From NCBI GenBank assembly GCA_964549615.1, contig CAZJVP010000020.1, forward strand, positions 64,001-128,000: a DNA stretch of 64,000 nt. Direction: 5' to 3'. The translations under genes and the position numbers were made by a program. The notes under the pieces were generated by a model that made no database searches, had not been told where the DNA came from, and saw nothing but the letters and a program-made list of their open reading frames with translations. Positions 14,524 through 52,492 of this stretch are shown piece by piece. This stretch comes from an uncultured Thermococci archaeon. GTDB lineage: Archaea > CAYQAE01 > CAYVLA01. Position 1 is the stretch's first letter; every line of letters begins with the position of its first letter.

Positions 14524-14631
14524 CTCCTGCCCCCGGGGGATTTAGGATAGTAAAGACTCGCAGGAGGTCCGCGCGATTTGACGGCGAAAACTCTTATATT
14601 TGGCCCGTCGAAGCCGGCGCCGGGACCTTCC

Positions 14632-18081: not shown

Positions 18082-19341
18082 ATGGACAACCTGCGCTCAT
18101 CTGTGCTGATTACTCGCACCTCCTCGAACCTACAAGCAATCCTTGCGATGGTCGTTTCCTCGGCTATCTTCTGCGTGTTCCCTGCCCCGGGACTGGAGGA
18201 TGGTCGGATCGGCGTCCTCTACGTCGGCTGCGTAGCGCGCTCGCAGCCCTTCTGGATGATGAGATCCGATCCCCTGTTCAGGATGCAATTCGTGCAGGCA
18301 ACGATCCGCGACTTCATGATGTATGGGCCGATGCCTGCCAAGACAGACGCTGACGTGCACAGGATGGTTAGGCTTTACATGCCACGCACCGACCGGGAGC
18401 TAACGGAAAACTACGATGCAATCGTCCTCTCCGAGGCCAACGTGGATGCGGTTGGTCCCCACATCGACAAGCTGGCCCGAGCCGTCTCCGAGGGGGGCCT
18501 CGGCCTCGTCATGGCCGGTGGCTGGCAGTCGTTCGGAGCTGCCAGCTCCTATCACCCGTGGAGCGAAACCTCGATTGGACGACTCCTTCCGACCGAAGAC
18601 ATCGCCGGAACCTGGGATGAGTCCGTGTTTCAACGCCTAGTGATCGACAGGCCCGATCACGAGCTGATGAGCAGCGTTCCATGGCAGTCGGGCGATCCCG
18701 CTTTGGCCGGCGGGATATGGCACCACAACCGGGTCACCGTCAAGCTAGGCGCCGATCAGCTTGCGCATGTGGTATCGGGCTCAGGCCACGAGGACCCCCT
18801 CATGGTCACATGGAGGATAGAGACCGGGCCCCGGACCTTTGCGCTGACAAGCGAGTCATGCCGCCTTCCCCTGTGGATCTACGCCTACGACTACGTCAGC
18901 AACCTGATGATCTTCCTAGACGAGCGGCCGGTCCCTCAGGATGTGAACCTCGTTCACGCCGCGAGGTCGAAGATGCTCGAGACCAAGACAAGAAGGTCGC
19001 TTCTTTCTTCCCTCCTCGATTTCTGTGAATCATTTGGAGCGAACACCCGCAGTATGATGTCTAGGCTTGAGAAGATGGATGAGATAATTGCCAGCGCCAC
19101 CCCCAGGTATCTTGAGCTTCGTTTCGACGATATGATGGAGACCTACCGCCGGGTTGGCGAGATCCTCGACGATGCTGAGGAGGAGGCCATCAAGCTCAAG
19201 AACCGAACCTTGCTCTGGGTCTACCTGATCGAGTGGCTTGCGGTGAGCGGAACGGCGGCGGTCTGTGGATTCCTGCTATGGTCGCTGATGTTGCGTCGCA
19301 GGTTCTACAGGGAGGTTCAAACCACAAGGCTCGCCAGGTAA
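18082..19341 (+). CDS. Family A copy 1: membrane-anchored GATase1-like surface protein
   Basis: Signal peptide, GRIGVLYVG, RLYMPRT, YDAIVLSEA, GLGLVMAGGWQSFG, DFCESFGANT, TM LLWVYLIEWLAV..SLMLRRR. Confidence 0.8.
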   Translation: MDNLRSSVLITRTSSNLQAILAMVVSSAIFCVFPAPGLEDGRIGVLYVGCVARSQPFWMMRSDPLFRMQFVQATIRDFMMYGPMPAKTDADVHRMVRLYMPRTDRELTENYDAIVLSEANVDAVGPHIDKLARAVSEGGLGLVMAGGWQSFGAASSYHPWSETSIGRLLPTEDIAGTWDESVFQRLVIDRPDHELMSSVPWQSGDPALAGGIWHHNRVTVKLGADQLAHVVSGSGHEDPLMVTWRIETGPRTFALTSESCRLPLWIYAYDYVSNLMIFLDERPVPQDVNLVHAARSKMLETKTRRSLLSSLLDFCESFGANTRSMMSRLEKMDEIIASATPRYLELRFDDMMETYRRVGEILDDAEEEAIKLKNRTLLWVYLIEWLAVSGTAAVCGFLLWSLMLRRRFYREVQTTRLAR

Positions 19342-19657: not shown

Positions 19658-20788
19658 ATGGCTTTGGAGCTGTGGATGCATGGCATATCGGCACAGGACC
19701 CGCAGGCCTGCCTGGAAAGGCTTCACGATCTTGGGTTCTCGGCCGTGGTTCTAGGCACCGACCAACGCCAGTTGGCCGCAGCCAAGAAAGTCGGGCTGCG
19801 TGCATACGCGTGCACCGGAACCTTCTCCAGATCCAAGGAATTCCGGGACGAAAGCTACCTTGCGATAGACGTCGAGGGAAGCCCCCGCGAATGGTTTGGG
19901 TCAACGTGCCCAAACCGAGGTGCGGTGAGGGACTTTAACCTCTCCCAGATACGGGATCTGGTGACTAAGACCGATGCCGACGGAGTCCTCTTGGACGGCT
20001 GTCGCTTTGCCTCCCCGGCCTCGGGCCTAGAGGCATTCTTCACATGCTTCTGCCCGACCTGCGAGAAGAAGGCCCAAGAGATGGGCTACGATTTTGCGAG
20101 GATGAGGAAACAGATCAAGACGATCTACAGGATGCTTGCTGACGGCCGGCTCGGCAAACGACCCGTGGACATGAACCCCTTCCTCTTGCTTTCATCGATC
20201 TCGGTCTTTCCCGCACTTGGCGACTGGATCTCCTTCAGGACGGAGTGCATAATCGAGCACTTTTCAAGCGCCTCGGAGCTGGTCAGGGGGGCGGGCGCCA
20301 AGATGGGCGCTTACATCTTCACTCCCTGCCTGTCGCCGCTGGTCGGACAGCGCTACTCCAGCCTGGCTAACCTGTTGGATGTGGCCTCCCCCATGATCTA
20401 CAGGAACTACCCCGAGGGCGAGGGTCCTGCATGCCTGAACAAGGAAGCCGCGACCCTTGCCCGGTTTCTACGTCGGGGCGGGCTGAAGGACCGCAATGCG
20501 GTGGAGATCGTGAACCGGTTCCTCGGCTTGTGCGAGGAGGACAAGACCATATCTGGCGTGGATAGGGAGATCTCGTTGGAGTCCATCGAGCGGGAACTCA
20601 CAAGGACCGTGGTGTACCTAGGCGGCCGGCCGAAGGTTGTGCCGATACTCTACCTCGGGGATGAGCTCGTGGAGAACTGCGTCCAAGCCGCATCGTCCGC
20701 TGGGGTGGACGGAGTCAACTTCTTCGTCTACAAGGATGAGTGGAGCGGCGTCGTGGAGAGGATCTCCCAGTGCGCGCATCCGAAGTGA
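19658..20788 (+). CDS. Putative glycoside-hydrolase-like TIM barrel (GHL10/DUF187-like)
   Basis: TCPN..AVR, DGVLLDGCRF, CFCPTC, DVASPMIY, GVDGVNFF. Confidence 0.55.
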   Translation: MALELWMHGISAQDPQACLERLHDLGFSAVVLGTDQRQLAAAKKVGLRAYACTGTFSRSKEFRDESYLAIDVEGSPREWFGSTCPNRGAVRDFNLSQIRDLVTKTDADGVLLDGCRFASPASGLEAFFTCFCPTCEKKAQEMGYDFARMRKQIKTIYRMLADGRLGKRPVDMNPFLLLSSISVFPALGDWISFRTECIIEHFSSASELVRGAGAKMGAYIFTPCLSPLVGQRYSSLANLLDVASPMIYRNYPEGEGPACLNKEAATLARFLRRGGLKDRNAVEIVNRFLGLCEEDKTISGVDREISLESIERELTRTVVYLGGRPKVVPILYLGDELVENCVQAASSAGVDGVNFFVYKDEWSGVVERISQCAHPK

Positions 20789-22008
20789 GTGGGTTCACAG
20801 CCAGGACCCACGTAGAACGTTCAGCCGCCGGCCTGTTGGCGGTCTGCATGGGATTCCTCCTTTCCGTCCCCTTATGTGCGGCGAGGAGCGATCCTGCGAC
20901 GGGACGGGTGAGGTTGATCTACTTCGGAGACCCGATAGGTGCAAGCCCCTTCCCCTTCATGATGAACGAGCCGCTCCTCGCACCTGCAGCCGTGATGGCC
21001 TGCAAGATGTGGTACCCCTACGAGACCATACGCAAGAGCATGCGGATCTATGCGCCGCGCACCTTCGAGGCGTTGGACTCGTCGTACGACATGATCATCC
21101 TCAGCGACGCCAACGTGCTGAGCTTCGAAACAAGGCACCTGGACTGGTTCTCCCATTTCGTGGCCGATAAGGGCGGAGGGCTCGCGATGATCGGCGGGTT
21201 CGAGTCCTTCGGGGGCCAGGGCTACTTGTCCTGGGGTCCGACGCCGGTGGGCGATGTCCTGCCGGTCGAGTGCGTGGCCGGAGGCTACAACGCCGAGGGC
21301 CAGATAATCATCGTCCAGCCGGATTGCCCCGTGGTCTCCAACCTCCCATGGAACACCTTGGGCCCGAGCAACTACCTTGGGGGAAATCGGGTCACGCTCA
21401 AGACGGGATCTGAGCTTGTCGCCAGGTTCTCGGACTCAAACCCCCTCTTTGTATGGTGGAAGTGTGGAAAGGGAAGGTCGTACGCGATGGCCGGTGACTG
21501 GACCCCGGCCGGGGGAACGCAGTTCATGAAGTGGGATTACTATGGGGACTATGCGGTGAACGTCGTCCTATTCACGGCAAGCGAGGAGGTCCCCGCCGAT
21601 GTAGAGATCATGCATTCGGTCAGAGGGATCCTTCGCGCCTATGGAGAGACGAAGGGCTACCTGTACTCCCTTATGGATTTTGCCGAGAAATTCGGCGCCA
21701 GCATGAACGGGATCGAGCGAAGCATCGGCGAGGCCGAACTGGAGGCCTCGCGTGCCAGGTCCCTCTATATGTCCTACGATTTCCATGGCGCCGCTTCAGC
21801 CGCCGCGGAAGCCGTGGCGATGCTGGAGGCTGCGTTGGATGACGCCGTCCGCGCAAAGGACAGCGCAATGCTTTGGGTATTCCTCGTAGAGTGGTTGGCG
21901 GTGATCTCGACTTGCATGGTCTCCGGCCTGGTGCTCTACGAGTTGATGATCGCGCGGCGGCTGCTCAAGCCAGCCCCATCGAGCATCTTCACCAAAGGCA
22001 TGTCCTAG
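20785..22008 (+). CDS. Family A copy 2: membrane-anchored GATase1-like surface protein
   Basis: ARSDPATGRVRLIYFGD, RIYAPRT, YDMIILSDA, GLAMIGGFESFG, GKGRSYAMAGDWTPAGG, DFAEKFGAS, MLWVFLVEWL. GTG start overlaps the previous stop. Confidence 0.85.
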   Translation: MSGFTARTHVERSAAGLLAVCMGFLLSVPLCAARSDPATGRVRLIYFGDPIGASPFPFMMNEPLLAPAAVMACKMWYPYETIRKSMRIYAPRTFEALDSSYDMIILSDANVLSFETRHLDWFSHFVADKGGGLAMIGGFESFGGQGYLSWGPTPVGDVLPVECVAGGYNAEGQIIIVQPDCPVVSNLPWNTLGPSNYLGGNRVTLKTGSELVARFSDSNPLFVWWKCGKGRSYAMAGDWTPAGGTQFMKWDYYGDYAVNVVLFTASEEVPADVEIMHSVRGILRAYGETKGYLYSLMDFAEKFGASMNGIERSIGEAELEASRARSLYMSYDFHGAASAAAEAVAMLEAALDDAVRAKDSAMLWVFLVEWLAVISTCMVSGLVLYELMIARRLLKPAPSSIFTKGMS

Positions 22009-22237
22009 AGACATGAACGCGATCAAGCTGCCGGCGGGGATTTGCCGTGCTTCCTATGTCCGACCTGCTCTCATCCCCCGCGAGCAGGCCAGCCATCCGG
22101 CGGGCAATCGTCCTTCTGGCAGTGCTGGATATATGGGCGGCGGCGCCAAGCGAAACCCATGTCGACCGTTGGTCGCCGTCGAGACCCCAGCCTCGCCCGC
22201 TGATAACACTAAATAGCCATCGGCCGATGCGCGGCCC

Positions 22238-23434
22238 GTGAGAGAAACCGCGGTTGCCGCTGTGTGCCTGTACCTCGCGGCAGCCTCGCTTGGCCCGACG
22301 GGTCTCGCGGCGACCAACGAGACGATCGCGAGGCAGCTCATGACCCAGCTGGGGAGGTTCGGGCCGTCCTATCCCGACTCACCAGACAGACACGACGCCC
22401 TTCTCCAGATCGACAGCCTCTTCCTGAACGATAGCCTTGGACCGCTCCGGGCGTTGGTCAAGGAAATGATCTCGACCGCGTTGTCCGACATCGTGGGCTA
22501 CCAAGGATCGGCCCCAAGGGTGTGGTACTTCTGGAACATGGGCTACATCGTAAAGGCGAAGGGCCAGGTGCTGGGGTTTGACCTTGCCGAGCTGCAGCTC
22601 GCACCGCTCAACGCTGAACAGAAGAAGCTGCTCGGCCAGAACCTGGACGTACTGTTCGTCTCCCATGTGGACAATCCGCATATAGACAGGGACCTTGTGT
22701 CGTACATGAGGGCCGAGTCGTTCGTCGTCTGTCCGGCTGAGGACGTCTCCTTCTTCGATACCGTGTTGGACAGGAAATGCGCGATCGTTGGCATGAAAGC
22801 GGGGGAGAAGCGTCAGGTCGGCTCCACGTCCGTGGAGGCTTACCCCGGTGACCACGGCGCCGGGGGACCCAACATGCGCTGTTACTTAGTATCAATTGGT
22901 GGAACCAAGCTCATGCAGACCGGCGACCAGCGCACCGTTGCGGAGTGGATGAAGGAGGTAGGCAGGAAGTCGCTCGACGTTCTCATGATCAACCCCCTTT
23001 GGGAATACAACTGGACGGTGGAGGCGGTCAGGACCATGAAACCGTCCTGCGCGCTGCCCGGAACGATGTACGATATGTCGCACGAGAAGGAGACCTGGCA
23101 CGGATATCCCTATGCCTTCCGGCTCAGGGAGGACGTGGGGCCGAACGTGTTCCCGATCTTCTTTGGGGAGAGGATATCGATCCCGACGTCGTCCTCGGAT
23201 TCCCTTTCCTTCGTGCTAATCGGCCTCGTTGCGGCAGCCGGCGTCGCGGTAGCGTATGGAGCGGTGGCCCGGAGGAGGAGAACGCCCGGCGCGAAGCTTC
23301 CCAAGCCAGCTGCGGATTTGATGTGCCAAAAGAGGTACGTTCCGGAGCTTTGCGTGACGTGCAGGCACTACGTCGTGAAGGGCGGCAAGATCCACTGCTC
23401 GAAGCACAACATCGCCCTCGACTCCGAGACCTAG
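22238..23434 (+). CDS. Secreted MBL-fold (UlaG-like) protein with TM anchor and cytoplasmic Cys4 tail
   Basis: Signal peptide, NMGYIVK..GFD, LDVLFVSHVDNPH, QTGD, TM, then CQKRYVPELCVTCRHYVVKGGKIHCSKH. Confidence 0.8.
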   Translation: MRETAVAAVCLYLAAASLGPTGLAATNETIARQLMTQLGRFGPSYPDSPDRHDALLQIDSLFLNDSLGPLRALVKEMISTALSDIVGYQGSAPRVWYFWNMGYIVKAKGQVLGFDLAELQLAPLNAEQKKLLGQNLDVLFVSHVDNPHIDRDLVSYMRAESFVVCPAEDVSFFDTVLDRKCAIVGMKAGEKRQVGSTSVEAYPGDHGAGGPNMRCYLVSIGGTKLMQTGDQRTVAEWMKEVGRKSLDVLMINPLWEYNWTVEAVRTMKPSCALPGTMYDMSHEKETWHGYPYAFRLREDVGPNVFPIFFGERISIPTSSSDSLSFVLIGLVAAAGVAVAYGAVARRRRTPGAKLPKPAADLMCQKRYVPELCVTCRHYVVKGGKIHCSKHNIALDSET

Positions 23435-23435
23435 G

Positions 23436-24767
23436 TCAGTCCTCAAAGGGGATGGGAAGCTTGTGCTTGGAGCAGTAATGACTTCCGGCCCTTATCGTGT
23501 TGTATCTGCAGAACGGACACAGTTCTTTGGCGGGCTTTCCCTGGCAGACCTCGTATGGCCTCTTCTTAGCCCTTCCCGCTTGGGCCGTTCCTTCCTTGCG
23601 TTTCCGGCTCCTCACGACCCAAGGCGAGACGACCCCCAGGACCAAAACGATTGCAACCGCAACATAGAGGAGTGGAATCCCGCTGCCTTCAGGCTTGGCT
23701 ATCTCGCCCCTGAATCGCGTGACCCCGGCGGATGTGGCAAACCAAACGTAGGCACCGTCGACTGCAATGTCACGGACTTCGCTGGACGCAAGGCCCTCTG
23801 ACCTCCTGTAGACGCCGATGCCGCCCCGTCGTCCGATGGCCGTGACTCCGAAAGTCAAGCTCCCGGCCCATATCCTCGAGTTCGTGGCGACGGACCCCAC
23901 CGAGTTGTCCGCGAGTCCTGTGGACTTGTCGTAGGTGACGATCGAGCCGTCTTCAGGATCGTACCGGCACAACCCTCCCGCCCCGGTGCCTATCCAAAGG
24001 AACTCGTCATCTGCGGCCAGCGCCAGGATCCGACTGTCCGAAAGGCCGTCGCCGATGCTGACCTGCTTCTTGAAGCTCAGGGAGGCGCGGTCGAAGCCGA
24101 GGACTCCGTTCGCGTTCGTCCCGAACCATATCATCCCTTTCAGAACCGCCACCGCGCTCGTTGTCTTCTCTGGCAGCCCCGCCCCGCCGATGGTCTGGAA
24201 CGAGGGGATCTCTGCGTCGAGAGAGGCCCGTGCTCCGCCGCCCGAGGTTGCTATGTACAGGTACTCCCCGTCGCTCGCTAGGTCGGCCACGCGGTTGTCG
24301 GGCAGACCGTTCTCCGTCGTGTAGGACTCCCAGGCACCTGATCTGTACCTAAACAGCCCGTCACCGAAAGTTCCCAGCCAGACGCCTCCCTTGGCGATAT
24401 GTATGCATACGACCCTGGTCGCGAGGCCGGGCGGACTCATGGCAGTCCAGGTCCCGCTGGACGCAGCGAACCTTGCGACCGCGCCGGCCATCCCAGCCCA
24501 GACTTCGCCCTTCGAGGCCGCTATGCTGAACACGTTCTCGTCCGGCAAACCTTCATCGCGGCCAAAGCTTGTCCACGTTGCTTCCTCTGTCTGCGCATCG
24601 CAAGACGGGGGAGAGAGCGTGAGGACTGCGATTATGCAGGCCAGCCCCGCCGCTACCGTTCCTCGGCTTTGAACGTAAGCCGGTAGACCACAGCGATCGC
24701 CACCAAGCCGAGCGCGGTGAACAGCGCCAGACGAATGATCCTTCTCTGTGAGCTCTTCTTCCTCCAC
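23436..24767 (-). CDS. Two-component-regulator-type (Reg_prop) beta-propeller protein with TM anchor and cytoplasmic Cys4 tail
   Basis: Repeats GLPDENVFSI / GLPDNRVADL / GLSDSRILAL / GLADNSVGSV / GLASSEVRDI with WxGT, then TM and CQGKPAKELCPFCRYNTIRAGSHYCSKH. Start uncertain (GTG 24767 has an upstream GGAGG). Confidence 0.8.
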   Translation of the reverse strand: MEEEELTEKDHSSGAVHRARLGGDRCGLPAYVQSRGTVAAGLACIIAVLTLSPPSCDAQTEEATWTSFGRDEGLPDENVFSIAASKGEVWAGMAGAVARFAASSGTWTAMSPPGLATRVVCIHIAKGGVWLGTFGDGLFRYRSGAWESYTTENGLPDNRVADLASDGEYLYIATSGGGARASLDAEIPSFQTIGGAGLPEKTTSAVAVLKGMIWFGTNANGVLGFDRASLSFKKQVSIGDGLSDSRILALAADDEFLWIGTGAGGLCRYDPEDGSIVTYDKSTGLADNSVGSVATNSRIWAGSLTFGVTAIGRRGGIGVYRRSEGLASSEVRDIAVDGAYVWFATSAGVTRFRGEIAKPEGSGIPLLYVAVAIVLVLGVVSPWVVRSRKRKEGTAQAGRAKKRPYEVCQGKPAKELCPFCRYNTIRAGSHYCSKHKLPIPFED

Positions 24768-25675
24768 TCCGATGCCTCCTTGGCGAGTTCGGCCTTCTTC
24801 CGCTGGAACGCATCGAGGCTTGATTTCAATGCTTCCATGCGTTGCTGCGAGGTAGTTCTGCCCCTTTCCGCTGTCCATCTCAGGCAGCTTTTCAGCAGTG
24901 CCTGGAATTCCGGGTTGTAGACGACCCCGGAGTAGTCGTCGGGGCCTCCCCGCTCCGTCAGGCCGAATGCGGGGAGCACTACAGACCGGCCCGCGTCCTC
25001 ATAGGCTATCACCGCCGGCACCATCCCGTCCTCATAGGAACTCTTGGCCTCCTGGGTCTTGTAGACCACGGCCATCGTGCCCACGGATGGCTTGGGAGGA
25101 TCCCTGGCTTTGGTCTCGCCCGCCAAGCTTGACCAGTAGAGCCTGACATCGCTGAAGAAGATCTGGTCCGGCAGCCCGGCGGCGATGGGATGGGTTGGGT
25201 CGCTTTTCACGTAAGTGTGTCCCATGGCTATCTTGCCTCCCACCACGGTCAGACGACCTTCGCTTGTCGCATTAGCAAAGACGGGCAGGATGGTGCGCGA
25301 GAGATTGGTCGCAAATGCAACTTCGTTGATCCCGATCAAACCTACGCCTCTATCGAACAGCTCGATCATCGCCGCCTGCAGTTCAGCAGGGATCAATGCC
25401 GAATAGATCGATATGATTCCGACATAGGTCTGGGGGAAGGCTAGGTACTCGACGAATTCGCCCAGCGAGCCCACAACGACTGGCTTGAGGCCCAGCGAGG
25501 TATCGTTTGCGATGATTTGGGCGAGAGCCGATGCATAGGCCCCGAAGATGTTGCTTTCACCGGGCAGCTGCTGGTAGCCATTCGCGCAGAGGATCGGCAC
25601 GATTCCTTCCTGGCCCGTCGCGATCGGAAGGCAAAACGCCAAGATGATGAATGCGACGAACCGCGTTCCCGGCAT
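24653..25675 (-). CDS. Family C copy 1: secreted ThuA/GATase-like fold protein with helical stalk and C-terminal TM
   Basis: Signal peptide, FDRGVGLIG, HPIAAGLPD, VIAYEDAGRSV, PEFQALL..RW, TM. Paralog of 50633-51625. Confidence 0.7.
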   Translation of the reverse strand: MPGTRFVAFIILAFCLPIATGQEGIVPILCANGYQQLPGESNIFGAYASALAQIIANDTSLGLKPVVVGSLGEFVEYLAFPQTYVGIISIYSALIPAELQAAMIELFDRGVGLIGINEVAFATNLSRTILPVFANATSEGRLTVVGGKIAMGHTYVKSDPTHPIAAGLPDQIFFSDVRLYWSSLAGETKARDPPKPSVGTMAVVYKTQEAKSSYEDGMVPAVIAYEDAGRSVVLPAFGLTERGGPDDYSGVVYNPEFQALLKSCLRWTAERGRTTSQQRMEALKSSLDAFQRKKAELAKEASEWRKKSSQRRIIRLALFTALGLVAIAVVYRLTFKAEER

Positions 25676-25677
25676 GG

Positions 25678-26559
25678 CTACACCTCCACGTAACCTCCGT
25701 TCTCGATGATGTGTAGCAGGATCTTGTCCGCAGCCAACTCCCCATCGATCTCGAACTTGACCATGTGAACCAGGTACTTGCCGTAGAGCTGCTTGGCGAA
25801 CAGCTTGGGATAGGCACTGTATGCTGAGCGGATGCGGTAGACTATGGAGACCCGGTCATTCCTGGCAAGATCGGAGAACACGATCCTGCCCTGTCCAGGG
25901 GCCTTGCTAGCCGGCAGCGCGCCGGCCGCAAGCGCGGCCTTGTCCTCCGCGGACACGTACGTCGTCTTGTTGGCGTTCACCGTGATCTCGAGCCCCTTCA
26001 GGGAGATCTCACGCATGAAGAAGTAATCCGAGACCCCCTCGTAGAGGCCTTCGATCATCTTGGACTTGTTCAAGACGACCGCGTAGACGGTCGGGTAGTA
26101 GGATGACCCGCTCGGCGGAAGAACGGGGTTGAGAGCCGGACCGAAATCGTAGACCACCATGGTTCGCCTCCCGCCCCCGATGTCCACATCGGACACCGTC
26201 ACCTCCGGCTTGTAGCCCAGATCCTGCACCAGGCCAAGCTTTCCACTGATCTGTTCGATCACCTCGCCGGCCCTTCGCGGATCGTCCACCTTTGGCGAAG
26301 CCTCGGTGAAGTTGGGCCGAACCGGCATGAGGAAGGAGAACGACACAGCAACCTGTTTGAGCGGCTCCCTGCAGATGAAGGCGACCGAGTACTTGTCCTG
26401 ATCAAGCTCCGATACGCCCGCGAGAGCTTTCAGCGGAAATGATTGATCTATCACGTTGATGGGCGTCTCTATCTTCTCTTTGATCAGGTAGAGGGAGATC
26501 AGGCTCCCCACTATCAAGGATATGACAAGGACGCCGATGAGCCGCCTCTCGACCTTCAT
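25678..26559 (-). CDS. Family B copy 1: N-terminally anchored hypothetical protein
   Basis: Single N-terminal TM. Aligns by eye with 51622-52470 (SFPL/EYPL, YEG..YFF..EISL/FEG..FF..ERSL, APGQGRIVF/APADGVLVF). Confidence 0.7.
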   Translation of the reverse strand: MKVERRLIGVLVISLIVGSLISLYLIKEKIETPINVIDQSFPLKALAGVSELDQDKYSVAFICREPLKQVAVSFSFLMPVRPNFTEASPKVDDPRRAGEVIEQISGKLGLVQDLGYKPEVTVSDVDIGGGRRTMVVYDFGPALNPVLPPSGSSYYPTVYAVVLNKSKMIEGLYEGVSDYFFMREISLKGLEITVNANKTTYVSAEDKAALAAGALPASKAPGQGRIVFSDLARNDRVSIVYRIRSAYSAYPKLFAKQLYGKYLVHMVKFEIDGELAADKILLHIIENGGYVEV

Positions 26560-26619
26560 GATCGACCGCCTCGGTTTGCAGAGAGGGAGTATAGAAAAAA
26601 GGGAAAAAAGGCAGAAGGC

Positions 26620-29313
26620 TCAACTTCTGCCCCTAAGTCTCCTGGCAGCTGCTAGCGATACGAGGAACAGTGCTGGAATCACTGCTTCAGGGACGCCAAA
26701 GTAATTGGTGTTGCGAAGGTCCCTGTACATGTACGGCCAGGGCGTCGACGAGGACAGCACCAAGCCGGATATCGGCGTCTCCACCCCGAAGATGCCCTTG
26801 GTGGCTATCACGCTCACATTGCCCCTCTCGTCGCCGTACAGAAGCTCGGTTATCCCGTCGCCGTTCATGTCCACGGCCACCGCGTGGTTCCACCGGAACC
26901 TGCCTGAGTTCACGGCCTGGTAGGTCCAGACGACCCTCCCGTCGCTGCCGCGCAGGGCATAGATCCTGCCGTCCGAGCCTCCGACTATGACCTCGGGCTT
27001 CCCATCGCCCGTTATGTCCGCGACTATCGGATACTCGGGCTGGAAGGCCCCTAGGACCTGGCTCGATAGGTTCTGCCTCCAAACCACGGCTCCCTTGTAG
27101 TCCAAGCAGTATACGAGGCCGGTTCTCCTGAGAGTGAACACGGTCTCCAGCTTGCTGTCGCCGACCAGATCCGCAACCTGCGCCTTGCTTACCCTCACCC
27201 GCATCCCTGAGTCGAAGACCCACTTGCGCGTGCCCGTGTCGTCGACGCAATACACACGCCCCTCGTAGGCACCGCCAACGACGATCTCAAGATACCCGTT
27301 GCCGTCGATGTCCGCTATCGAGGGCGCCGCGTTCAGGCGATCGCCGGGCTCCACAGGGCTCACCCATAGAGGTGTGCCGTCGGCCTTCCACGCGTAGATC
27401 CCGTAGAGCACCTCGTCCTCCGACGTCATAACTATGTCCAGACTGCCGTCGCCGGTGATGTCCGCCACCGCAACCGTATTCTCGCCTATCGATCCAACCG
27501 GAGCTTCCCACAAGGTCTTGCCGGTGTAGTCGAAGACGAAGAATTTCTTGAGCTCCTTCGAGCCGACCAGTATCTCCAGCTTGCCATCCTTGTTCAGATC
27601 CACCAGCGTGGGCGAGCAGTACAGTATGTTCGGGTCGCTGGGGGGCACCCCCGCCCACAAGAGCTTGTACCAGAGAGTCCTGCCCTGGTTGTCAAGCACC
27701 CGCATCGTTCCGTTCCTGGTATTGAAGACGATCTCCGGTTTGCCGTCGCCGTTGATGTCGCCAATCGCTGGCAACCTATAGATTTGATAACCGGCAGTGT
27801 AGCGCCACAGTTCTTTCTTAGCCTGGTAATCCAACGCGAACAGAATGCCCGTTCCGCTGGTGCCCACGATGATCTCGGGTTTGCCATCGCCGGTTATGTC
27901 CGCTGCGAAGGGCGGCGCCTCTATGCTGCCGCCGACATTGTAGGTCCATATGGGGTACTCCCTCGGGAAGTAGTTGTTGTTGTTCGGGGTTCTGCACATC
28001 AGTGGCCAGGGGGATGACCAATCTCCCACGAACATGCCTGGTGTCTTCAGCACGCTCACGTTGCCCCTCTCGTCCCCGTATATGATCTCTGCCCGCTGGT
28101 CGCCGTCCAGATCGGCGACGCACGGCTGGTTGTACTGGAACCTCCCTGCGTTGATGGCTTGGTAGGTCCACACAACCTTGCCGTCCGCACCGTTCAGAAC
28201 GTAGATCTTGCCATCCGAGCCGCCCAGAACAACGTTGGGCTTGCCGTCGCCCGTCACGTCCGCAAGAACCGGTAGCTCCGGATGGAATCCGTTCAGAACC
28301 GGAGCTGTCAGGTTGGTTATCCATAGCTGCTTGCCGGTGTGGTCAAGTGCATAAACGAGACCCGTTCTCTTGACGACGAACACGAGATCCAGCTTGCCAT
28401 CGCCGTTGAGATCGCCCAAGGGCGTCTTCCCCACCCTGTCCCGTTTCCCTGCAGAGTCTGCCGTGTCGAACACCCATTTCCTTGCGCCCGTGCGGTCGAG
28501 GCAGTATACGCGGCCTTGGTAAGCACCGCCAACAACGATCTCCACGTAGCCGTCGCCATCCAGGTCCGCAATGGACGGGCAGAAGTTGAGAATATCTCCC
28601 GTCTCAACCTGATGGACCCAGATCGGTTTGCCGTCTGCCTCCCAGGCGTACACCGCATACAGGGTTGCGTCCTCCGACGTCAGCACAATCTCCAAGTCGC
28701 CGTCGTTGTCGATGTCTGCCACTGCAGCAGTGTTGTCGCCAATCTTCCCTATCGGAGCGTTCCACAGCTCTTTACCGGTGTAGTCGAACACGAAGAACTT
28801 CATGAGTTCCTTGGAACCGACCATGATCTCCAGCTTGCCATCCTTGTTGATGTCGGCGAGAGCCGGCGAGCAGTACAACCGATCGCCCGGATCAGTGCTG
28901 GGGTCCCCAGCCCATAAGTTCTTTTGCCAGACAAGCTTACCTTGGTTGTTGAGGACCCGCATCGTGCCGTTCCTCGCATTGAAAACGATCTCCGGCTTCC
29001 CGTCGCCGTCGATGTCGCCCACCGCGGATATTCTGACGATCTGGAATCCAGCGTCGAATTCCCACAGTTTTGCGCCGTTCACGCCGTTGAGCACCGTCAG
29101 CTTGCCCGTTTCCCTGCCTCCGACGATCAGCTCGGGCTTGCCGTCTCCTGTTATGTCAGCCGCCATTATGGGCGATTCAATCCTGCCGCCCACGTTCGTG
29201 GTCCAAACTAGTGTTCCTTCAGCTAGCACTGGTACGATCCCTGCCAATCCGATCAAGCACGCAGCAAGTGCGACGCTGATCGGAAAGACTCGAAAACTCC
29301 TGCAGACCTTCAT
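26620..29313 (-). CDS. FG-GAP/PQQ-like tandem beta-propeller surface protein with VPE-type C-terminal sorting signal
   Basis: Many DxxGDGxxE Ca-binding repeats, two internally duplicated halves, signal peptide after ATG 29313 (GGAGG upstream), ends GVPEAVIPALFLVSLAAARRLRGRS. Confidence 0.88.
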   Translation of the reverse strand: MKVCRSFRVFPISVALAACLIGLAGIVPVLAEGTLVWTTNVGGRIESPIMAADITGDGKPELIVGGRETGKLTVLNGVNGAKLWEFDAGFQIVRISAVGDIDGDGKPEIVFNARNGTMRVLNNQGKLVWQKNLWAGDPSTDPGDRLYCSPALADINKDGKLEIMVGSKELMKFFVFDYTGKELWNAPIGKIGDNTAAVADIDNDGDLEIVLTSEDATLYAVYAWEADGKPIWVHQVETGDILNFCPSIADLDGDGYVEIVVGGAYQGRVYCLDRTGARKWVFDTADSAGKRDRVGKTPLGDLNGDGKLDLVFVVKRTGLVYALDHTGKQLWITNLTAPVLNGFHPELPVLADVTGDGKPNVVLGGSDGKIYVLNGADGKVVWTYQAINAGRFQYNQPCVADLDGDQRAEIIYGDERGNVSVLKTPGMFVGDWSSPWPLMCRTPNNNNYFPREYPIWTYNVGGSIEAPPFAADITGDGKPEIIVGTSGTGILFALDYQAKKELWRYTAGYQIYRLPAIGDINGDGKPEIVFNTRNGTMRVLDNQGRTLWYKLLWAGVPPSDPNILYCSPTLVDLNKDGKLEILVGSKELKKFFVFDYTGKTLWEAPVGSIGENTVAVADITGDGSLDIVMTSEDEVLYGIYAWKADGTPLWVSPVEPGDRLNAAPSIADIDGNGYLEIVVGGAYEGRVYCVDDTGTRKWVFDSGMRVRVSKAQVADLVGDSKLETVFTLRRTGLVYCLDYKGAVVWRQNLSSQVLGAFQPEYPIVADITGDGKPEVIVGGSDGRIYALRGSDGRVVWTYQAVNSGRFRWNHAVAVDMNGDGITELLYGDERGNVSVIATKGIFGVETPISGLVLSSSTPWPYMYRDLRNTNYFGVPEAVIPALFLVSLAAARRLRGRS

Positions 29314-29989
29314 TTCATCCTCCTCTCTCCTTTCGAGTAGGCGCGCAGAGGCTTGTCGGCCTTCTCTTAAAGGTTGCGTCACCCAGTTCAGTTCACCGTC
29401 TAATCCAACCCGATTCAACCAGATGGACCCCTGGCCTGCGATGTCCCCGGATAAAGGACGGATGGCTAGAAACCCTAGTAGACCAAGAGACGCTGTCGAG
29501 GGGCCGCAGGGGCAAGAACGCCCTTGAAGGATTCGGTCGAGCCTTTTAGCCAGCACATCCGTACGTCCGAGAAGCTGCTCCCGCGGAATCAACCTTGAGG
29601 CCCGCCCGAGCAGGGATCACCCCAACATCGAGGTGGGATCGACTCGGCAGGCCCCGCAGATGTTCGGTAAACCCACATATGCCACACTTTGCAAGAGGAG
29701 CTATCGGTGGCTCAGCCCGAGGAGACACCGGCTTCCAACCCGCGACCGGGTGTATCGAATGGGTGGATGGGATTTCGGGTATCTCTTCTTCCCCGGAGGA
29801 GACAAAGGACTCCGGCCTCTCCAATCGCTTTGTCCGAAGCCCTGTGCATCAACGTGCCGTCCCGAACTTAATCGCCTGCTGGAGGTCATCCGGATCGGGA
29901 AAACGGAAGAGTGTAAACACGTCCCTTCGCCTGACAGCGAGCCCCAGCGGGGAACACTTAAGAGGCCTCGAAGGGCCCGAGCGAACCAC

Positions 29990-31207
29990 ATGAAGGCTCT
30001 GGCATCTGCATTCGGGATCGGTCTCGTAATCCTCGCATCCCTCGGGTGCATCCCGGCCCGGCAGGATCCAGCAACCGGGAAGGTACGCCTTCTCTACATC
30101 GGGGATTACGTTGGCCCCAACACCCCGGCCCGCTTCCTGGACGAGGAGCCGCTCATATCCGTGAGGGGGGTGCCGGCCACCCTTGCTTGGTACCAGGAGA
30201 CGTTCATCCGGAAATTCATGAGAATCTACATGCCGCGAACCTACGAGGACCTGTCGGGCAATAACGATGTCATCCTCTTCAGCGACGCGGGGGTGCGGAT
30301 GTTCGAGGCCAGACACTTCGCTTGGTTCAAGGATGCCGTTGTGAATGATGGACTGGGCATGGCGATGATAGGGGGCGTGGAGAGCTTCGGCGCCGAGCCC
30401 GGTAGGCCGCCCTGGATTGGCACGACCGTCGCCGAAATACTTCCCGTTGAGGGCGTGTTCCAGAGCTTCAACCCGGCGACCGGCACGGTGGCAATCCTCA
30501 AGCCGGACAACGAGTTCATCGCAAGCCTTCCCTGGGATACGTTGGTTCCCCCGATGAACACGTTCCTGAGGTTCAACGATCTGATCCTGAAGGAAGGCGC
30601 CGATGAACTGGCCGCGCTGATGGTTGGGAAGGAGAGCCATCCCTTCCTGGTCACCTGGCTGCAGGGAAAGGGACGGACGTTCGCCATGGGGGCCGACTGG
30701 ACGCCCACCGGCGGGGTCAACTTCATGAAGTGGGAATACTACGGAGACTACGCAAGCAACCTAGTGCTCTACACGGCGCAGACAAAGGTGCCGTCTGAAC
30801 ATGGGCTCAGACACGCATACAAGACGCTTGCGATGAAGTACCGGGACGGCAAGGTCCTCTTGATGGCGACGCTGGACTTCGTGGAGAAGTTCAACGCAAA
30901 CACGCGCTCCCTCGTCATCGACATAAACGCAAACGAGCTGCAGAAGAAGGAGGCCGAGAAGCTGTACATCGAGCAGGACTTCGAGGCAGCCGTGTCCAAG
31001 ATGAGCGAGGTCATCCAGCGAAACGACGAGCTCACGATCGAATCGTTGAAGCTGAGGGACAGGGCACTCCTCTGGGTCTACGTCATCGAGTACCTGGTCG
31101 TGACCGCCACCTGCCTCATCACGGGGACATTGGTTTACACCTTGATGATCAGACGCAGGCTCTACCGCGAAGTCGAGATGACGAGGGGCAAGGGAAGAAG
31201 GCTTTGA
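29990..31207 (+). CDS. Family A copy 3: membrane-anchored GATase1-like surface protein
   Basis: Start at ATG 29990 (MKALASAF signal), ARQDPATGKVRLLYIGD, RIYMPRT, GLGMAMIGGVESFG, DWTPTGG, DFVEKFNANT, LLWVYVIEYL. Confidence 0.85.
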   Translation: MKALASAFGIGLVILASLGCIPARQDPATGKVRLLYIGDYVGPNTPARFLDEEPLISVRGVPATLAWYQETFIRKFMRIYMPRTYEDLSGNNDVILFSDAGVRMFEARHFAWFKDAVVNDGLGMAMIGGVESFGAEPGRPPWIGTTVAEILPVEGVFQSFNPATGTVAILKPDNEFIASLPWDTLVPPMNTFLRFNDLILKEGADELAALMVGKESHPFLVTWLQGKGRTFAMGADWTPTGGVNFMKWEYYGDYASNLVLYTAQTKVPSEHGLRHAYKTLAMKYRDGKVLLMATLDFVEKFNANTRSLVIDINANELQKKEAEKLYIEQDFEAAVSKMSEVIQRNDELTIESLKLRDRALLWVYVIEYLVVTATCLITGTLVYTLMIRRRLYREVEMTRGKGRRL

Positions 31208-32697
31208 AGAGCGCGAGCCGCTACGCTTTCATGGTCTTCATCCAGTTGCTGGCAGCGCACGCCAGCGGCGGGGCATCGGCCGACTCGCCCTACGGCGTGG
31301 TTCACGGAGATCGCACCTCCTTCCTGGTGGAGGGCGGCTTCAGCTGGACAAGGGTGGACTTCAACTGGAACGCCATTGAACCCCAGAATGGCACCTTTAC
31401 GTTCGAGCAATACGACAGTTTCGTTGAGAACTGCACGCGCGCTGGCATACACGTCTTGGCCATACTGGACTACTCCGCCAACTGGGCATCGTCCGGCCCA
31501 CCCGACTGGAAGGACATAGACCGGTTCCCGCCCAAGTACATGAGCGACTGGGAGGAATACGTCTTCCAGACCGTCAGCCACTTCAAGGACCGCGTCAAGC
31601 ACTGGGAGGTCTGGAACGAGCCCAACATTCGGTACTTCTGGTTTCCAAAGGCCGACGCGAAGGAGTATTACCGGCTGCTAAAGTCCGCCTACGCCGCTGC
31701 AAAGAGGGCCGACCCGGAGTGCACTGTTTTGATCGGAGGGATCATAGGATTCGACGTGCGATACCTCCGTGAGGTATACGAGCTGGGCGGAGCGAGGTTC
31801 TTCGACGTCATGGCAATCCACCCCTACTCGGCCGAGCCCTACGACAGATGCAACTTCAGCGGCAACATGTCGGCGCTCAGATCGCTCATGGCCGAGTACG
31901 GGGACTCGAAGAAAGAGATCTGGTTTACGGAGCTCAGCTGGACGGTCTCGCAAAACCTCTCGAAGGATGACCAGGCAGCCTACCTCATCCGCTCGTACGT
32001 CCTGTCCTTCGCGGAGGGCGCGGACAAGTTGTTCTGGTTCAACCTTAACGCGGCCCCGCCACCGGAGGAGAGCTCCGGGCTGATCGAGCACGATCTCACA
32101 CCAAGGCCGGCCTTCTGGGCCCATAAGGCCCTAGCCGATATCGTAGGACCGGCAGAATACCGGTGTAGGGTCAAGCTTGGCACGGGAATCCATGCCCACC
32201 TTTTCCACCGGGAGGGAACGTACGTCATGGTCCTCTGGGCCCCCAACGAGACCGCCGAAGTCAGACTCAGAATGGCATCGAGGAGTTCCAGCCCCCGCCT
32301 CTGGGACATGTTCGGCAAGGCGATTCAGCCATCCATCAAGGGACGGTTCATTTCGCTTGAAGCGTCACCACACCCGATCTTCATCTCGAATCTGAGCGAG
32401 GACGATGTTCAAGCACTGCTGGCCCGACGGGGTTGGATTCCGTTTGTGAGCTTGGCCGCGCTGGTCGCCGCGGTCGGATGCTCGATGGCATACCTTTGGG
32501 TGCGGCGACGCCGTGGCCCAGCTCCTACGCAGCGGGCCGATGGGGAGAAGCCGCCAACCAGGTCCGCGACGAAGTTCGGAGATGTGCCGGCCGAATGCCA
32601 AAAGGCTTTCAAGGACACGGTCTGCCTCAAGTGTAGGCACTACGTGATCCAGGGAGGAACTGGACGTTGCAGGAAGTTCGGCATAAGGTTGGACTAG
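31204..32697 (+). CDS. Clan GH-A glycoside hydrolase (GH39/GH5-like) with TM anchor and cytoplasmic Cys4 tail
   Basis: Signal peptide, acid/base WEVWNEPN, AIHPY, nucleophile IWFTE, TM, then CQKAFKDTVCLKCRHYVIQGGTGRCRKF. Confidence 0.85.
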   Translation: MKSASRYAFMVFIQLLAAHASGGASADSPYGVVHGDRTSFLVEGGFSWTRVDFNWNAIEPQNGTFTFEQYDSFVENCTRAGIHVLAILDYSANWASSGPPDWKDIDRFPPKYMSDWEEYVFQTVSHFKDRVKHWEVWNEPNIRYFWFPKADAKEYYRLLKSAYAAAKRADPECTVLIGGIIGFDVRYLREVYELGGARFFDVMAIHPYSAEPYDRCNFSGNMSALRSLMAEYGDSKKEIWFTELSWTVSQNLSKDDQAAYLIRSYVLSFAEGADKLFWFNLNAAPPPEESSGLIEHDLTPRPAFWAHKALADIVGPAEYRCRVKLGTGIHAHLFHREGTYVMVLWAPNETAEVRLRMASRSSSPRLWDMFGKAIQPSIKGRFISLEASPHPIFISNLSEDDVQALLARRGWIPFVSLAALVAAVGCSMAYLWVRRRRGPAPTQRADGEKPPTRSATKFGDVPAECQKAFKDTVCLKCRHYVIQGGTGRCRKFGIRLD

Positions 32698-33899
32698 CCC
32701 TCCTTGCCTGCGCAGCCATCACGATGGGATTCTTGGCCCCGGCTTCAGCCGCCCGCCACGACCCCCAGACCGGGCGTATCAGGATACTCTTCATCGGCCA
32801 GCTCGTCGGCGCGGTGAACCTCTTCACCTCTTGGTACACGATCGAGCCGAGGATGACCGTTCAACCGGTTCCCTGCTCGCTCCAGCAAGTGTTGTTGACG
32901 GAGGCCAAACGCCTCGTCCGCCTTTACGTTCCACGCACCTACCAGGAGATGGTTGGGAAGTACGACTGCGTCGTGGTCCAGGACCTAGGCCCCGACGTCC
33001 TCTCACCCAATTTCCTACCAGACTTCCGGAGAGCCATCGAAGAGGAGGGCCTGGGCGCAGTCCTCGCGGAGTTCGTGTACTGGGTTGGAAACGGCAACAG
33101 GATAGACCTCTGGATGGCCTCGACCTTCTATGATATCGTGCCTGCAGACATACTGTTCGGGATCGAGATCCCACAAGGCCAGAACTCCTTCTACAAGCTG
33201 GTTGGAAATAACCCCATCCTGCAGCTGCCCCAGATCGAGAAGTACCAGATGAACGGCGGCCACCACGGGCCCATGATAGCCCGCCAGGGCAGCGAGGTCC
33301 TGGCCATCTGGAGGGGCCTCGAGTACCCGGCGGTGACCTTCAGGAATTCGGGACGCGGCGCGCTCATCCAGATAGGACACGGATTTGACAATATCCCATC
33401 ATCCACCTTGTACGACTGGACATACTCCCAGGACTACGCCTACAACCTCGTCTACGGCGCGACCCAGGAGGAGATCCCCAAGGATCTTGAGTTGGTGAGG
33501 AAGGCGAGGTCGCTCTTCACCTCGGCCGCTGAGAAGAAGTCCCTGGTCTTCGCGATCCTGGAGTTCGCCGAGAGGTTTGGGGCCAACACCCACCCGATAA
33601 CGAGGGAGATCGGAAATCTGGCGGAGAGGTACGCTGAGGGCAACTCCCACTACATCGACGGAGACTACGAACAGGCTGCCGCGGTCTACGAGGAGATCAT
33701 CGAAGAGTATGACAGGCTTGAGGCCAAAGCGCTCGCGCTGAAGGACAGGGCGCTTCTCTGGGTCTACACGATTGAGTGGCTCTCCGTGTCAGGCACCTCG
33801 ATGCTCTCGGGGTTTGTCCTTTACTCGCTCATGGTGAGGCGAAAGATGTTCCGGGCAGTTGATTCCACCAGGACGGCCTCCAAACGGAGATCGACATAG
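32667..33899 (+). CDS. Family A copy 4: membrane-anchored GATase1-like surface protein (divergent)
   Basis: ARHDPQTGRIRILFIG, RLYVPRTY, EFAERFGANT, LLWVYTIEWL..SLMVRRK. TTG start with GGAGG upstream. Confidence 0.85.
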   Translation: MQEVRHKVGLALLACAAITMGFLAPASAARHDPQTGRIRILFIGQLVGAVNLFTSWYTIEPRMTVQPVPCSLQQVLLTEAKRLVRLYVPRTYQEMVGKYDCVVVQDLGPDVLSPNFLPDFRRAIEEEGLGAVLAEFVYWVGNGNRIDLWMASTFYDIVPADILFGIEIPQGQNSFYKLVGNNPILQLPQIEKYQMNGGHHGPMIARQGSEVLAIWRGLEYPAVTFRNSGRGALIQIGHGFDNIPSSTLYDWTYSQDYAYNLVYGATQEEIPKDLELVRKARSLFTSAAEKKSLVFAILEFAERFGANTHPITREIGNLAERYAEGNSHYIDGDYEQAAAVYEEIIEEYDRLEAKALALKDRALLWVYTIEWLSVSGTSMLSGFVLYSLMVRRKMFRAVDSTRTASKRRST

Positions 33900-35152: not shown

Positions 35153-35815
35153 GTGGACAAGATACGAGTGCTCTGCTGGTCCGAGAGGACTGAACCCCCA
35201 AACGTCTATCCCAATGGCATCAACGGCGCAATCGCCGAGAGCCTCAACAGGCACAAGGATGTCTCGGCTAGGACTGCCTCGATATCAGATCCCGAGCAAG
35301 GATTGACGATGAACGCCCTCAGGGAGGCGGAGGTGCTCATCTGGTGGGGGCATGCGAAGCACGGGGAGGTCAGGGACGATCTGGTCGATCGCGTCGTCAA
35401 ACGCGTGAGGAACGACGGGATGGGCTTCATACCCGTCCACTCGGCCCACTACTCCAAACCTTTCAAGGTGCTCACCGGCATGCCATGCGACCTGGGCGGC
35501 TGGCGCGAGAAGGGCGAGTGGGAACGGATCAAGGTCATGGATCCCAACCACCCGATCGCGAGGGGCATCTCTGACTTCACCATCCCCCGCGATGAGATGT
35601 ACAAGGAGCCTTTCGGAATACCGGAGCCCGAGGCATTGGTCTTCCAGTCCACCTTCGAGGGCGGCGAGTGGTTCCGCTCGGGGGTTGCCTTCACCTTCGG
35701 GAAAGGCCGGGTCTTCTACTTCAGGCCCGGGCACGAAACGTTCCCGGTCATGATGGACAAGAACGTCCAGAAGGTCCTCTACAACGCAGTGCTCTGGGCT
35801 GCGCATAGGACATAG
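35153..35815 (+). CDS. Trehalose utilization ThuA-like protein
   Basis: VYPNGI..AIA, VLIWWGH..H, GMGFIPVHSAHYSKPF, EMYKEPF, FYFRPGHET. Confidence 0.9.
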   Translation: MDKIRVLCWSERTEPPNVYPNGINGAIAESLNRHKDVSARTASISDPEQGLTMNALREAEVLIWWGHAKHGEVRDDLVDRVVKRVRNDGMGFIPVHSAHYSKPFKVLTGMPCDLGGWREKGEWERIKVMDPNHPIARGISDFTIPRDEMYKEPFGIPEPEALVFQSTFEGGEWFRSGVAFTFGKGRVFYFRPGHETFPVMMDKNVQKVLYNAVLWAAHRT

Positions 35816-35835
35816 CGGGCAACGGGGGTTGGCAC

Positions 35836-44742: not shown

Positions 44743-44862
44743 CCCCTGGCAGCTTTCCAGTTGATTATCGTTAGGGCAACCTTCGGGCAGCGAGCCGCGA
44801 GCCGTGAGCCGTGAAACCTTTATTAGGCCTAGTCCGTGCTGCCTCGCACGCGGGTGATCGCG

Positions 44863-45648: not shown

Positions 45649-45657
45649 GGCGATTAC

Positions 45658-50485: not shown

Positions 50486-50632
50486 CCGCGGCGGCTCCCG
50501 CGTCTCAAAAGATTGGCAATCCTCTTATATTTTTTCCAAGATCCAGCGCGCAATGGCAGCCACGATTCGCGCGACAGGGACCGCCGGTTGGCTACCGTCA
50601 CGACCTAAGAATGGGGCCCTCGACGAGCGAGG

Positions 50633-52470: not shown

Positions 52471-52492
52471 CCTCCTAGACCCGAACCCTAGC

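Follow-up and report, generated by a model that had tools for sequence, protein, structure and literature searches.

The locus described here raises the question of what nine consecutive genes, each encoding a protein with an export signal or membrane anchor, might do together at the surface of an archaeal cell. The genes occupy positions 20785-33899 of a 64,000-nt stretch of DNA from an uncultured archaeon (the window, meaning the whole stretch that was analysed). Gene coordinates were taken from an open reading frame (ORF) listing and its translations and refer to the longest ORF. The genes are arranged in three transcription blocks. The first, on the forward strand, comprises A1, a member of a family here called A, and a gene for a metallo-beta-lactamase (MBL)-like protein. 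The second, on the reverse strand and converging on the first, comprises genes for an FG-GAP propeller protein, for B1 and C1 of two further families, and for a Reg_prop propeller protein (RegProp). The third, on the forward strand and divergent from the second, comprises A2, a glycoside hydrolase (GH) gene and A3. An N-terminal signal or anchor was found in all nine proteins and a C-terminal transmembrane (TM) helix in all except B1; C1, the C-terminal TM helix of A3 and the signal of GH were judged by direct reading of the sequence, the others by hydropathy scan. A preliminary description of this DNA had held every protein from 20785 onward to be exported and membrane-tethered, in this gene order and often with overlapping junctions, and the nine ORFs bear this out: A2 and GH overlap by 4 nt, as do A1 and the upstream gene X provided that the GTG at 20785 is the start of A1, and B1 and C1 are separated by 2 nt. 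The answer that we favour, at a probability of roughly 0.45, is that the cluster exemplifies a modular system at the cell surface that is specific to one lineage, a family of hot-spring archaea.

The evidence that carries this answer is the arrangement of the families across genomes. They were mapped in the genome to which the window belongs (G000; 3.21 Mb, 104 contigs), for which 3243 genes were chosen greedily from six-frame ORFs by a heuristic of our own, and gene adjacency was compared with 2000 shuffles of the family labels over the gene order. B comprised 31 ORFs and C 16. A C gene stood next to a B gene 11 times (shuffle mean 0.29) and a B gene next to an A gene 17 times (shuffle mean 2.15), and neither value was reached in any of the 2000 shuffles. 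Adjacency of A to A (18 observed, mean 10.9) was reached by 172 of the 2000 and is not clearly non-random; with 0.56 A genes expected per 13.1 kb, flanking A genes alone prove little. In three related genomes (G001-G003), 41 of 47 C matches had a B gene within 700 nt and four more had one within 1.3-1.7 kb. B and C are an obligate gene pair, and A-B(-C) is a frequent operon in which A often precedes B-C. The three families are real and recur as operons in G000 and in all three relatives. The preliminary description had named random co-location, or a failure to co-occur across genomes, as fatal to its proposal; neither was found for B-C, for A-B or for the cytoplasmic tail described below, and the point stands as a reasonable reservation about the flanking A genes. 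Its notion of A as a core subunit alongside B and C did not hold: with about 136 copies, mostly unlinked to B or C, A is not a dedicated core subunit.

The sample of the lineage consisted of four species-level genomes (G000-G003) from three genera of one archaeal family, together with one genome of a sister family (G004). In G000, G001, G002 and G003, respectively, matches to B numbered 31, 40, 17 and 21, matches to C 17, 25, 10 and 12, and four-cysteine (Cys4) tails 9, 10, 2 and 7; all three were absent from G004. First-look A candidates numbered 158, 241, 177 and 131 in the same order, with 58 scored and 58-59 matches listed per genome, and two weak matches were obtained in G004. No A or B match was found in 26 other archaeal genomes. 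Abundance of A, B, C and the tail is thus far confined to this one family, represented by four genomes.

Gene order was retained between genera. The operon of FG-GAP, B, C and RegProp-Cys4 recurs in two other genomes (G001 and G003), with divergent A2 and A3. In G003 (L009) the order is A3 and A2, then FG-GAP, B, C and RegProp-Cys4, then further A, A, B, C and A genes, without the GH and MBL-like genes. In G001, where the locus is split (L037 and L042), X and A1 are followed by five inserted genes, MBL-like-Cys4, RegProp-Cys4, C, B and FG-GAP, and then by A2, GH-Cys4 and A3. In G002 (L045) the genes are X, A, B and MBL-like-Cys4, so that the X-A order is kept in both G001 (L037) and G002 (L045). 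Orthologs of the cluster proteins were 47-71% identical, against 72-78% (G001, G003) and 70% (G002) for aspartyl-tRNA synthetase (AspRS); individual values were 66% for A1 and 47% for the MBL-like protein in G001, 69% for A2 and 58% for A3 in G003, and 62-71% for FG-GAP.

The Cys4 tail is carried in the cluster by RegProp, GH and the MBL-like protein. Its motif, C-x8-C-x2-C-x11-C, lies in a cytoplasmic region of about 35 residues, some 20-45 residues past the TM helix, and the four cysteines were invariant in 12 of 12 aligned tails (the three of the cluster, six more in G000 and three from relatives). Comparison with Pfam and PDB families gave chance-level matches only (E 0.015 or higher). A profile search of 5.8 billion proteins returned 41 carriers, whose heads were Reg_prop in 22, GH-A families in 6, Kelch in 1 and without a Pfam family in 12; six of these 12 were examined, five of which align with the MBL-like protein, the sixth being the tail-bearing protein of contig C77 of G000. 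There are nine tail ORFs in G000, three of them in this one cluster. A tail gene lay within three genes of A, B or C in 6 of 8 cases (mean 2.19, reached by 6 of 2000 shuffles), three of the six being in one cluster and hence non-independent. Among 19 tail loci of the four genomes, B or C was found within a few genes in 10, and A, B or C in 13. By these profile matches the tail stands out as a rare module, common to a small number of ectodomain types encoded within these modules. The earlier suggestion of a common cytoplasmic Cys4 tag on differing heads is thereby upheld for at least three or four ectodomains (Reg_prop, GH-A, MBL-like and Kelch).

RegProp-Cys4 (23436-24878, reverse strand, likely start near 24671; tail 23439-23579, tail hidden Markov model (HMM) 74 bits) consists of a Reg_prop beta-propeller (PF07494, 49.4 bits, cut-off 20.4), a TM helix and the tail. 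By homology its ectodomain belongs with the periplasmic sensor domains of the hybrid two-component systems (HTCS) of Bacteroides thetaiotaomicron (4a2l, E 6.4e-22; 3v9f, E 1.1e-14). No HisKA/HATPase, receiver or AraC domain was matched in Pfam, and the protein ends some 60 residues past the TM helix. GH-Cys4 (31204-32697, forward strand; tail 32566-32694, tail HMM 60 bits) has a GH-A ectodomain of GH39/PslG-like type, followed by a TM helix and the tail. It matched GH39 at 33.0 bits (cut-off 26) and GH10 at 32.2 bits (cut-off 22.1) and, among PDB entries, PslG 5bx9 at E 2.1e-22 over residues 41-317 and 5jvk at E 8e-25. The catalytic motifs NEP (WNEPN, 137-141) and TEL (FTELSW, 241-246) were found by direct reading, and the protein is apparently intact as a glycoside hydrolase. 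The third carrier (22238-23434, forward strand; tail 23291-23431, tail HMM 77 bits) has an MBL-like ectodomain, a TM helix and the tail. No Pfam or PDB HMM match was obtained for it (nothing below E 0.2 in PDB), and its conserved motif is SHxDxPHxD, not HxHxDH. The MBL label given to this head is weakly backed, by an Atlas language-model feature score of 0.96 to Lactamase_B_3 clusters and by one homologue named UlaG-like by its source.

B1 (25678-26559, reverse strand) and C1 (24653-25675, reverse strand) have homologous counterparts, B2 and C2, elsewhere in the window. B has no Pfam or NCBIfam match. The AlphaFold2 (AF2) model of B (pLDDT 91.7) has one N-terminal TM helix followed by beta-sandwich domains, and Foldseek gave no convincing match to it (TM-score 0.27 or lower). 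VIA-align placed pilin and adhesin Ig-like domains highest, at a best Z of 8.4, a level typical of models without a clear relative; kinship to pilins is not claimed on so unremarkable a value, and only the term beta-sandwich was kept. Atlas scores were 0.86 or lower, and an HMMER search of 1.84 billion representatives returned no more than 117 B clusters. One B-family member of a public collection (P0031) is fused to a C-terminal glycerophosphodiester phosphodiesterase (GDPD) domain (150 bits), and two others (P0035 and P0041) have N-terminal extensions. C1 has a signal and a weakly ThuA-like ectodomain of the GATase1 superfamily on a helical stalk, which is followed by a C-terminal TM helix; A has this layout of ectodomain, stalk and membrane helix as well. 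Its match to ThuA (PF06283, 18.9 bits) is below the cut-off of 33.4, and C2 has no match; PF06283 was precomputed on 2 of the 10 C1 matches listed, one of which is C1 itself.

A second locus, at 47786-53725, had been described as a repeat of A-B-C. A4, B2 and C2, all on the reverse strand, do form a single operon at 50633-53896, in which A4 (52493-53896, likely start 53725; PF07090, 32.1 bits; AF2 model and Foldseek search below) is followed by B2 (51622-52530; B HMM; 23% identical to B1) and C2 (50633-51625; C HMM), with overlaps of 38 nt and, between B2 and C2, 4 nt. The stretch from 47786 onward encodes a cytoplasmic ATPase that does not belong to the module. This 899-aa HerA/DUF87-like protein (47786-50485, reverse strand) and a PrimPol-like gene (54790-55626, reverse strand) flank the operon. 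The ATPase was considered as a component of the module and rejected: it is single-copy, with no paralogue, and its orthologs in G001 and G002 are not beside A-B-C. In a complex prediction of A4 with C2 and B2, with B as the partner, a control in which chain 1 was replaced scored as high as the complex.

The A family in the cluster comprises A1 (20785-22008, forward strand; longest ORF from 20740; TM segments at 27 and 375), A2 (29633-31207, forward strand, with its start probably near 29990; transcribed away from the FG-GAP operon) and A3 (32667-33899, forward strand; 142 phmmer matches and the conserved anchor). A further paralogue, A0 (18082-19341, forward strand), lies just upstream of the cluster and has a signal, a GATase1-like ectodomain and a C-terminal TM helix (TM segments at 14 and 377). 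A1 (69.6 bits), A2 (49.4 bits) and A4 exceed the gathering cut-off of 27 bits for PF07090 (GATase1_like), and A0 (20.3 bits) and A3 (no match) fall below it. In phmmer, A1, A2, A3 and A4 match one another at E 1e-45 or lower, and A0 and A3 are tied to the others at this level too. A profile of 11 A sequences matched the solved proteins 2gk3, 3soz and 3rht at E 1.6e-14 to 4.4e-12. The AF2 model of A4 (pLDDT 84.4) has an alpha/beta domain and then three long helices, the last of which enters the membrane. Foldseek placed the same three structures at the top (E about 1e-11 to 1e-12, TM-target 0.69-0.75; 2gk3 at E 4e-12), followed by GH42 middle domains, ThuA-like proteins and the IFT52 N-terminal domain (E 1e-5 to 1e-6). 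Whether 11, 27 or 130 A sequences are compared, the conserved columns contain no invariant Cys or His and no conserved Cys/His/Ser triad, and the residues at the elbow vary (ESF, QSF, VYW); a class I glutamine amidotransferase would have a conserved Cys-His-Glu triad with its nucleophile at the elbow. Lacking a conserved Cys/His triad, A is unlikely to be an amidotransferase.

The family is large and old. In G000 there were 149 ORF matches and 136 genes, or 4.2% of genes and 5.6% of coding residues, dispersed across the genome, and paralogues are 22-41% identical. The best-conserved part is the juxtamembrane-TM-tail segment, with 2.5-2.9 bits per column where the rest of A has 0.8-2.2; of 130 paralogues, 122 carry a Glu in the TM helix of this segment, and a basic tail follows. 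The possibility that this anchor is a sorting signal common to other proteins was rejected, all 139 of 139 anchor-HMM matches being A. A subfamily of A dedicated to B and C was likewise rejected: of 130 A genes, 23 have a B or C no more than two genes away, and the linked copies are scattered over the A tree (20 Fitch changes against 21.4 when shuffled). A0 belongs to a much tighter subfamily (phmmer, 142 matches), with 14 other paralogues at E 1e-114 to 1e-167 and the remainder at 1e-73 or weaker, which points to a younger burst inside the old expansion. Whatever its function, an expansion of this kind is unusual for an archaeal genome of 2.4-4 Mb; it is of similar size in three relatives and could account for the greater length of these genomes compared with 27 other archaeal genomes in the sample, which measure 0.5-2.1 Mb.

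The FG-GAP protein (26620-29592, reverse strand, likely start near 29313) matched FG-GAP_3 at 220 bits in 10 stretches; it consists of two propellers in tandem and ends in a P-x-P-E-like motif, a TM helix and a basic tail. About 10 of 22 FG-GAP paralogues end in such a motif followed by a TM helix and an Arg/Lys cluster (in the window at 26620-26700), and two genes of the exosortase/archaeosortase family (PF09721, above cut-off) were found at G000:C88:53688-54371 and G000:C51:56558-57319. As read from the sequence, this C-terminus may be a sorting signal, in which case FG-GAP proteins would be processed rather than simply TM-anchored.

Other modules of G000 share these parts in other combinations. 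That on C48 comprises A, B, FG-GAP and RegProp-Cys4, and that on C88 comprises C, B, A, two FG-GAP proteins, RegProp-Cys4 and A; FG-GAP with RegProp-Cys4 is a recurrent add-on. The C36 module consists of A, C, GH-Cys4 and B, after which comes a fusion of a RegProp-like protein with a GH9 domain. On C77 an A gene and FG-GAP are followed by a GH2 gene directly upstream of the tail-bearing protein. GH2, GH9, sulfatases, esterases and BNR proteins adjoin other modules or A genes. The fusion on C36 (873 aa; L031:11521-14139, equivalent to G000:C36:30521-33139) matched RegProp at E 1.3e-14 in phmmer and also CelD_N and GH9, and is in effect a sensor-like propeller joined to a cellulase-family enzyme. 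On C48, RegProp-Cys4 is followed directly (L032:8503-10468, equivalent to G000:C48:58503-60468) by an exported protein resembling terpene cyclase/prenyltransferase toroids, a DUF4430 protein and an ABC ATPase.

Cytoplasmic sugar-catabolic genes had been reported beside both loci of the window, and a Pfam scan confirmed them: an HpcH aldolase, ThuA, two GFO/IDH/MocA oxidoreductases and a xylose-isomerase-like TIM barrel. The cytoplasmic ThuA (103 bits) is directly upstream of a GFO/IDH/MocA oxidoreductase at 35153-36825 (forward strand), a classic ThuA-ThuB-type pair, and the second GFO/IDH/MocA gene lies with the TIM barrel at 44836-46620. Gene X (19658-20788, forward strand), directly upstream of A1, encodes a cytoplasmic protein without a TM helix and has a weak match to DUF4015, a putative glycosyl hydrolase family (PF13200, E 0.0016, below cut-off); a comparison with PDB profiles gave nothing below E 0.2. 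A sulfatase (175 bits) lies at 14578-15972 (forward strand), about 2 kb upstream of A0, and another is directly downstream of an A gene on contig C47.

How the parts might work can be set out only conditionally. Some modules add to A, B and C an FG-GAP propeller, a Cys4-tailed head or both, the heads being Reg_prop glycan-sensor-like, PslG-like GH39 or MBL-like hydrolase. The ectodomains would cooperate outside the single membrane to bind, sense and cut extracellular polysaccharide, and the cleavage products would supply the adjacent cytoplasmic sugar genes. Such joint action is suggested because RegProp is homologous to HTCS sensors, GH is apparently intact, the neighbours include genes resembling those of carbohydrate-active enzymes, and sugar-catabolic genes are adjacent. 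The A paralogues may be non-catalytic binding or scaffold modules of differing specificity that dock through their common anchor. The Cys4 tail would be a metal-binding knuckle that couples or reports the state of the ectodomain to a cytoplasmic partner, in place of the kinase and regulator output of the Bacteroides hybrid two-component sensors. Physical assembly of A, B and C, like glycan foraging itself, is a prediction made from sequence. Taken as a whole, the modular surface apparatus proposed in the preliminary description is partly supported.

Several observations weigh against this picture. Most A genes (107 of 130) have no B or C within two genes, and the 20 operonic neighbours of A scanned, other than A, B and C themselves, were mixed (cysteinyl-tRNA synthetase, radical SAM protein, polyprenyl synthase and others); a sulfatase, esterases, a BNR protein and one ABC-2 permease were also among them. 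Because most A genes lie away from B and C and their neighbours are heterogeneous, A may act alone or in something unrelated to glycans. The nearest solved relatives of A have no assigned function and A has no conserved triad, so that glycan binding by A is a guess. The tail is unlike any known zinc-finger family, and metal binding is deduced only from the four invariant cysteines. Six of the 19 Cys4 loci have no A, B or C nearby, one of them with FG-GAP only and five with none (two on contigs of about 4 kb). The four genomes are all kin, which makes the cross-genome counts not independent. Lastly, PslG is a self-exopolysaccharide processing enzyme of the Psl system and not a foraging enzyme.

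This last point leads to the alternative that survives best, a role in biogenesis or remodelling of the envelope or an exopolysaccharide, with A, B and C as structural or scaffold components of a pseudo-periplasm or matrix and with GH, the MBL-like protein and the propellers trimming or monitoring the cell's own glycans. It is a serious rival because PslG hydrolyses a self-polymer, although on balance we think it unlikely. The best characterised relative of GH is PslG (E 2e-22), a hydrolase of the Psl exopolysaccharide pathway; the long helical stalks and TM anchors of A and C are typical of envelope proteins; the 5.6% of coding residues taken up by A is as expected for abundant structural families; and FG-GAP paralogues with a sorting-signal-like C-terminus occur together with two exosortase-family genes. 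Set against this, no glycosyltransferase, flippase or polymerase was among the Pfam matches in or beside the cluster, the solved relatives of RegProp sense imported dietary or host glycans, the neighbours include catabolic sugar genes, sulfatases, GH2 and GH9, and more than 100 diverged paralogues suit diverse ligands better than a uniform wall.

Less probable again, and in our judgement quite improbable, is that A, and perhaps B and C, form a diversified family of surface receptors or decoys directed at viruses, symbionts or neighbouring cells, the glycan enzymes being incidental. The very large lineage-specific expansion (131-241 first-look A candidates per genome), the variable ectodomains on a conserved anchor and the dispersal of the copies over the genome would all suit such a family. 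However, A1, A2 and A3 orthologs are 58-69% identical between genera; because this is close to AspRS (72-78%), purifying selection is indicated rather than an arms race. The paralogues are also old, and the tight B-C pairing and the tail-bearing enzymes would be left unexplained. Co-location without joint function, in which abundant and locally duplicated families give a run of exported proteins by chance, accords with the expected density of A, with the A-A adjacency and with the heterogeneous A neighbours, but is very improbable and, as regards B-C, A-B and the tail, is refuted for the most part by the shuffles, the 41 of 47 paired C genes, the operon order retained between genera and the presence of three of only nine tail ORFs in this one cluster.

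The favoured reading of a modular surface system can be taken further, to an independently evolved archaeal counterpart of Sus-type polysaccharide utilization loci (PULs) and HTCS. In this form, 130-240 interchangeable A receptors would engage a common membrane partner through the Glu-bearing TM helix and basic tail, B-C would be a fixed core, and the heads would signal across the single membrane through a four-cysteine metal knuckle not described before. So specific a scheme is doubtful. If true, it would add a class of transmembrane signalling output, and a kind of machine for capturing glycans at the surface, that are both new. The broader reading of a modular surface system, if it holds, would show how a single-membrane archaeon senses and degrades extracellular polysaccharide without SusC/D or two-component outputs. 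The Cys4 tail would then be a new minimal cytoplasmic signalling or coupling module, and the uncharacterised PF07090 fold would acquire a function.

Full-text searches (listings and abstract openings) surfaced no description of this system or of the A expansion. Some better known systems share parts with it. Like the PULs and HTCS of Bacteroidota, the cluster brings together genes for surface glycan-active enzymes and a sensor, the regulatory role of which is here predicted from homology. The Reg_prop propeller ectodomains are homologous (4a2l, E 6e-22; PF07494), and in both cases there are many paralogous loci per genome with catabolic genes nearby. Unlike a PUL, the cluster lacks SusD and a SusC or TonB-dependent transporter, in an organism without an outer membrane, and no TonB-dependent receptor, Plug or SusD family was matched in Pfam scans of 13 module proteins and 32 other ORFs of the window. 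The cytoplasmic part of the archaeal sensor is a four-Cys tail of about 45-60 residues rather than a kinase, receiver or AraC domain, and the recurrent partners A, B and C have no PUL counterpart. The term PUL-like, used in the preliminary description, can accordingly be kept as an analogy only.

The ectodomain of A is homologous to the PF07090 proteins of Salmonella (STM3548, 2gk3; STM1381, 3soz) and Planctomyces (3rht). These are stand-alone proteins of about 250 residues, two of them titled cytoplasmic, whereas A is exported and linked through a three-helix stalk to a conserved TM anchor, with more than 130 copies per genome. The fold class is common to A and to the GATase1-superfamily domains of ThuA-like proteins, GH42 middle domains and the IFT52/GldG (GIFT) group, and weakly to C (ThuA, 18.9 bits). 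In GldG, too, such a domain is bounded by TM segments at both the N- and the C-terminal end, and a TM protein rich in beta structure is its neighbour. Unlike GldG, A and C have no Pfam match to ABC_transp_aux/GldG, and of 20 A neighbours scanned only one is an ABC-2 permease. Finally, the ectodomain of GH-Cys4 resembles the GH39-like PslG of Pseudomonas over residues 41-317, including the NEP and TEL motifs, and both proteins are membrane-anchored. PslG is anchored N-terminally and encoded in a biosynthetic operon; GH-Cys4, by contrast, has a C-terminal TM helix and a Cys4 tail, and its gene lies between two A genes.

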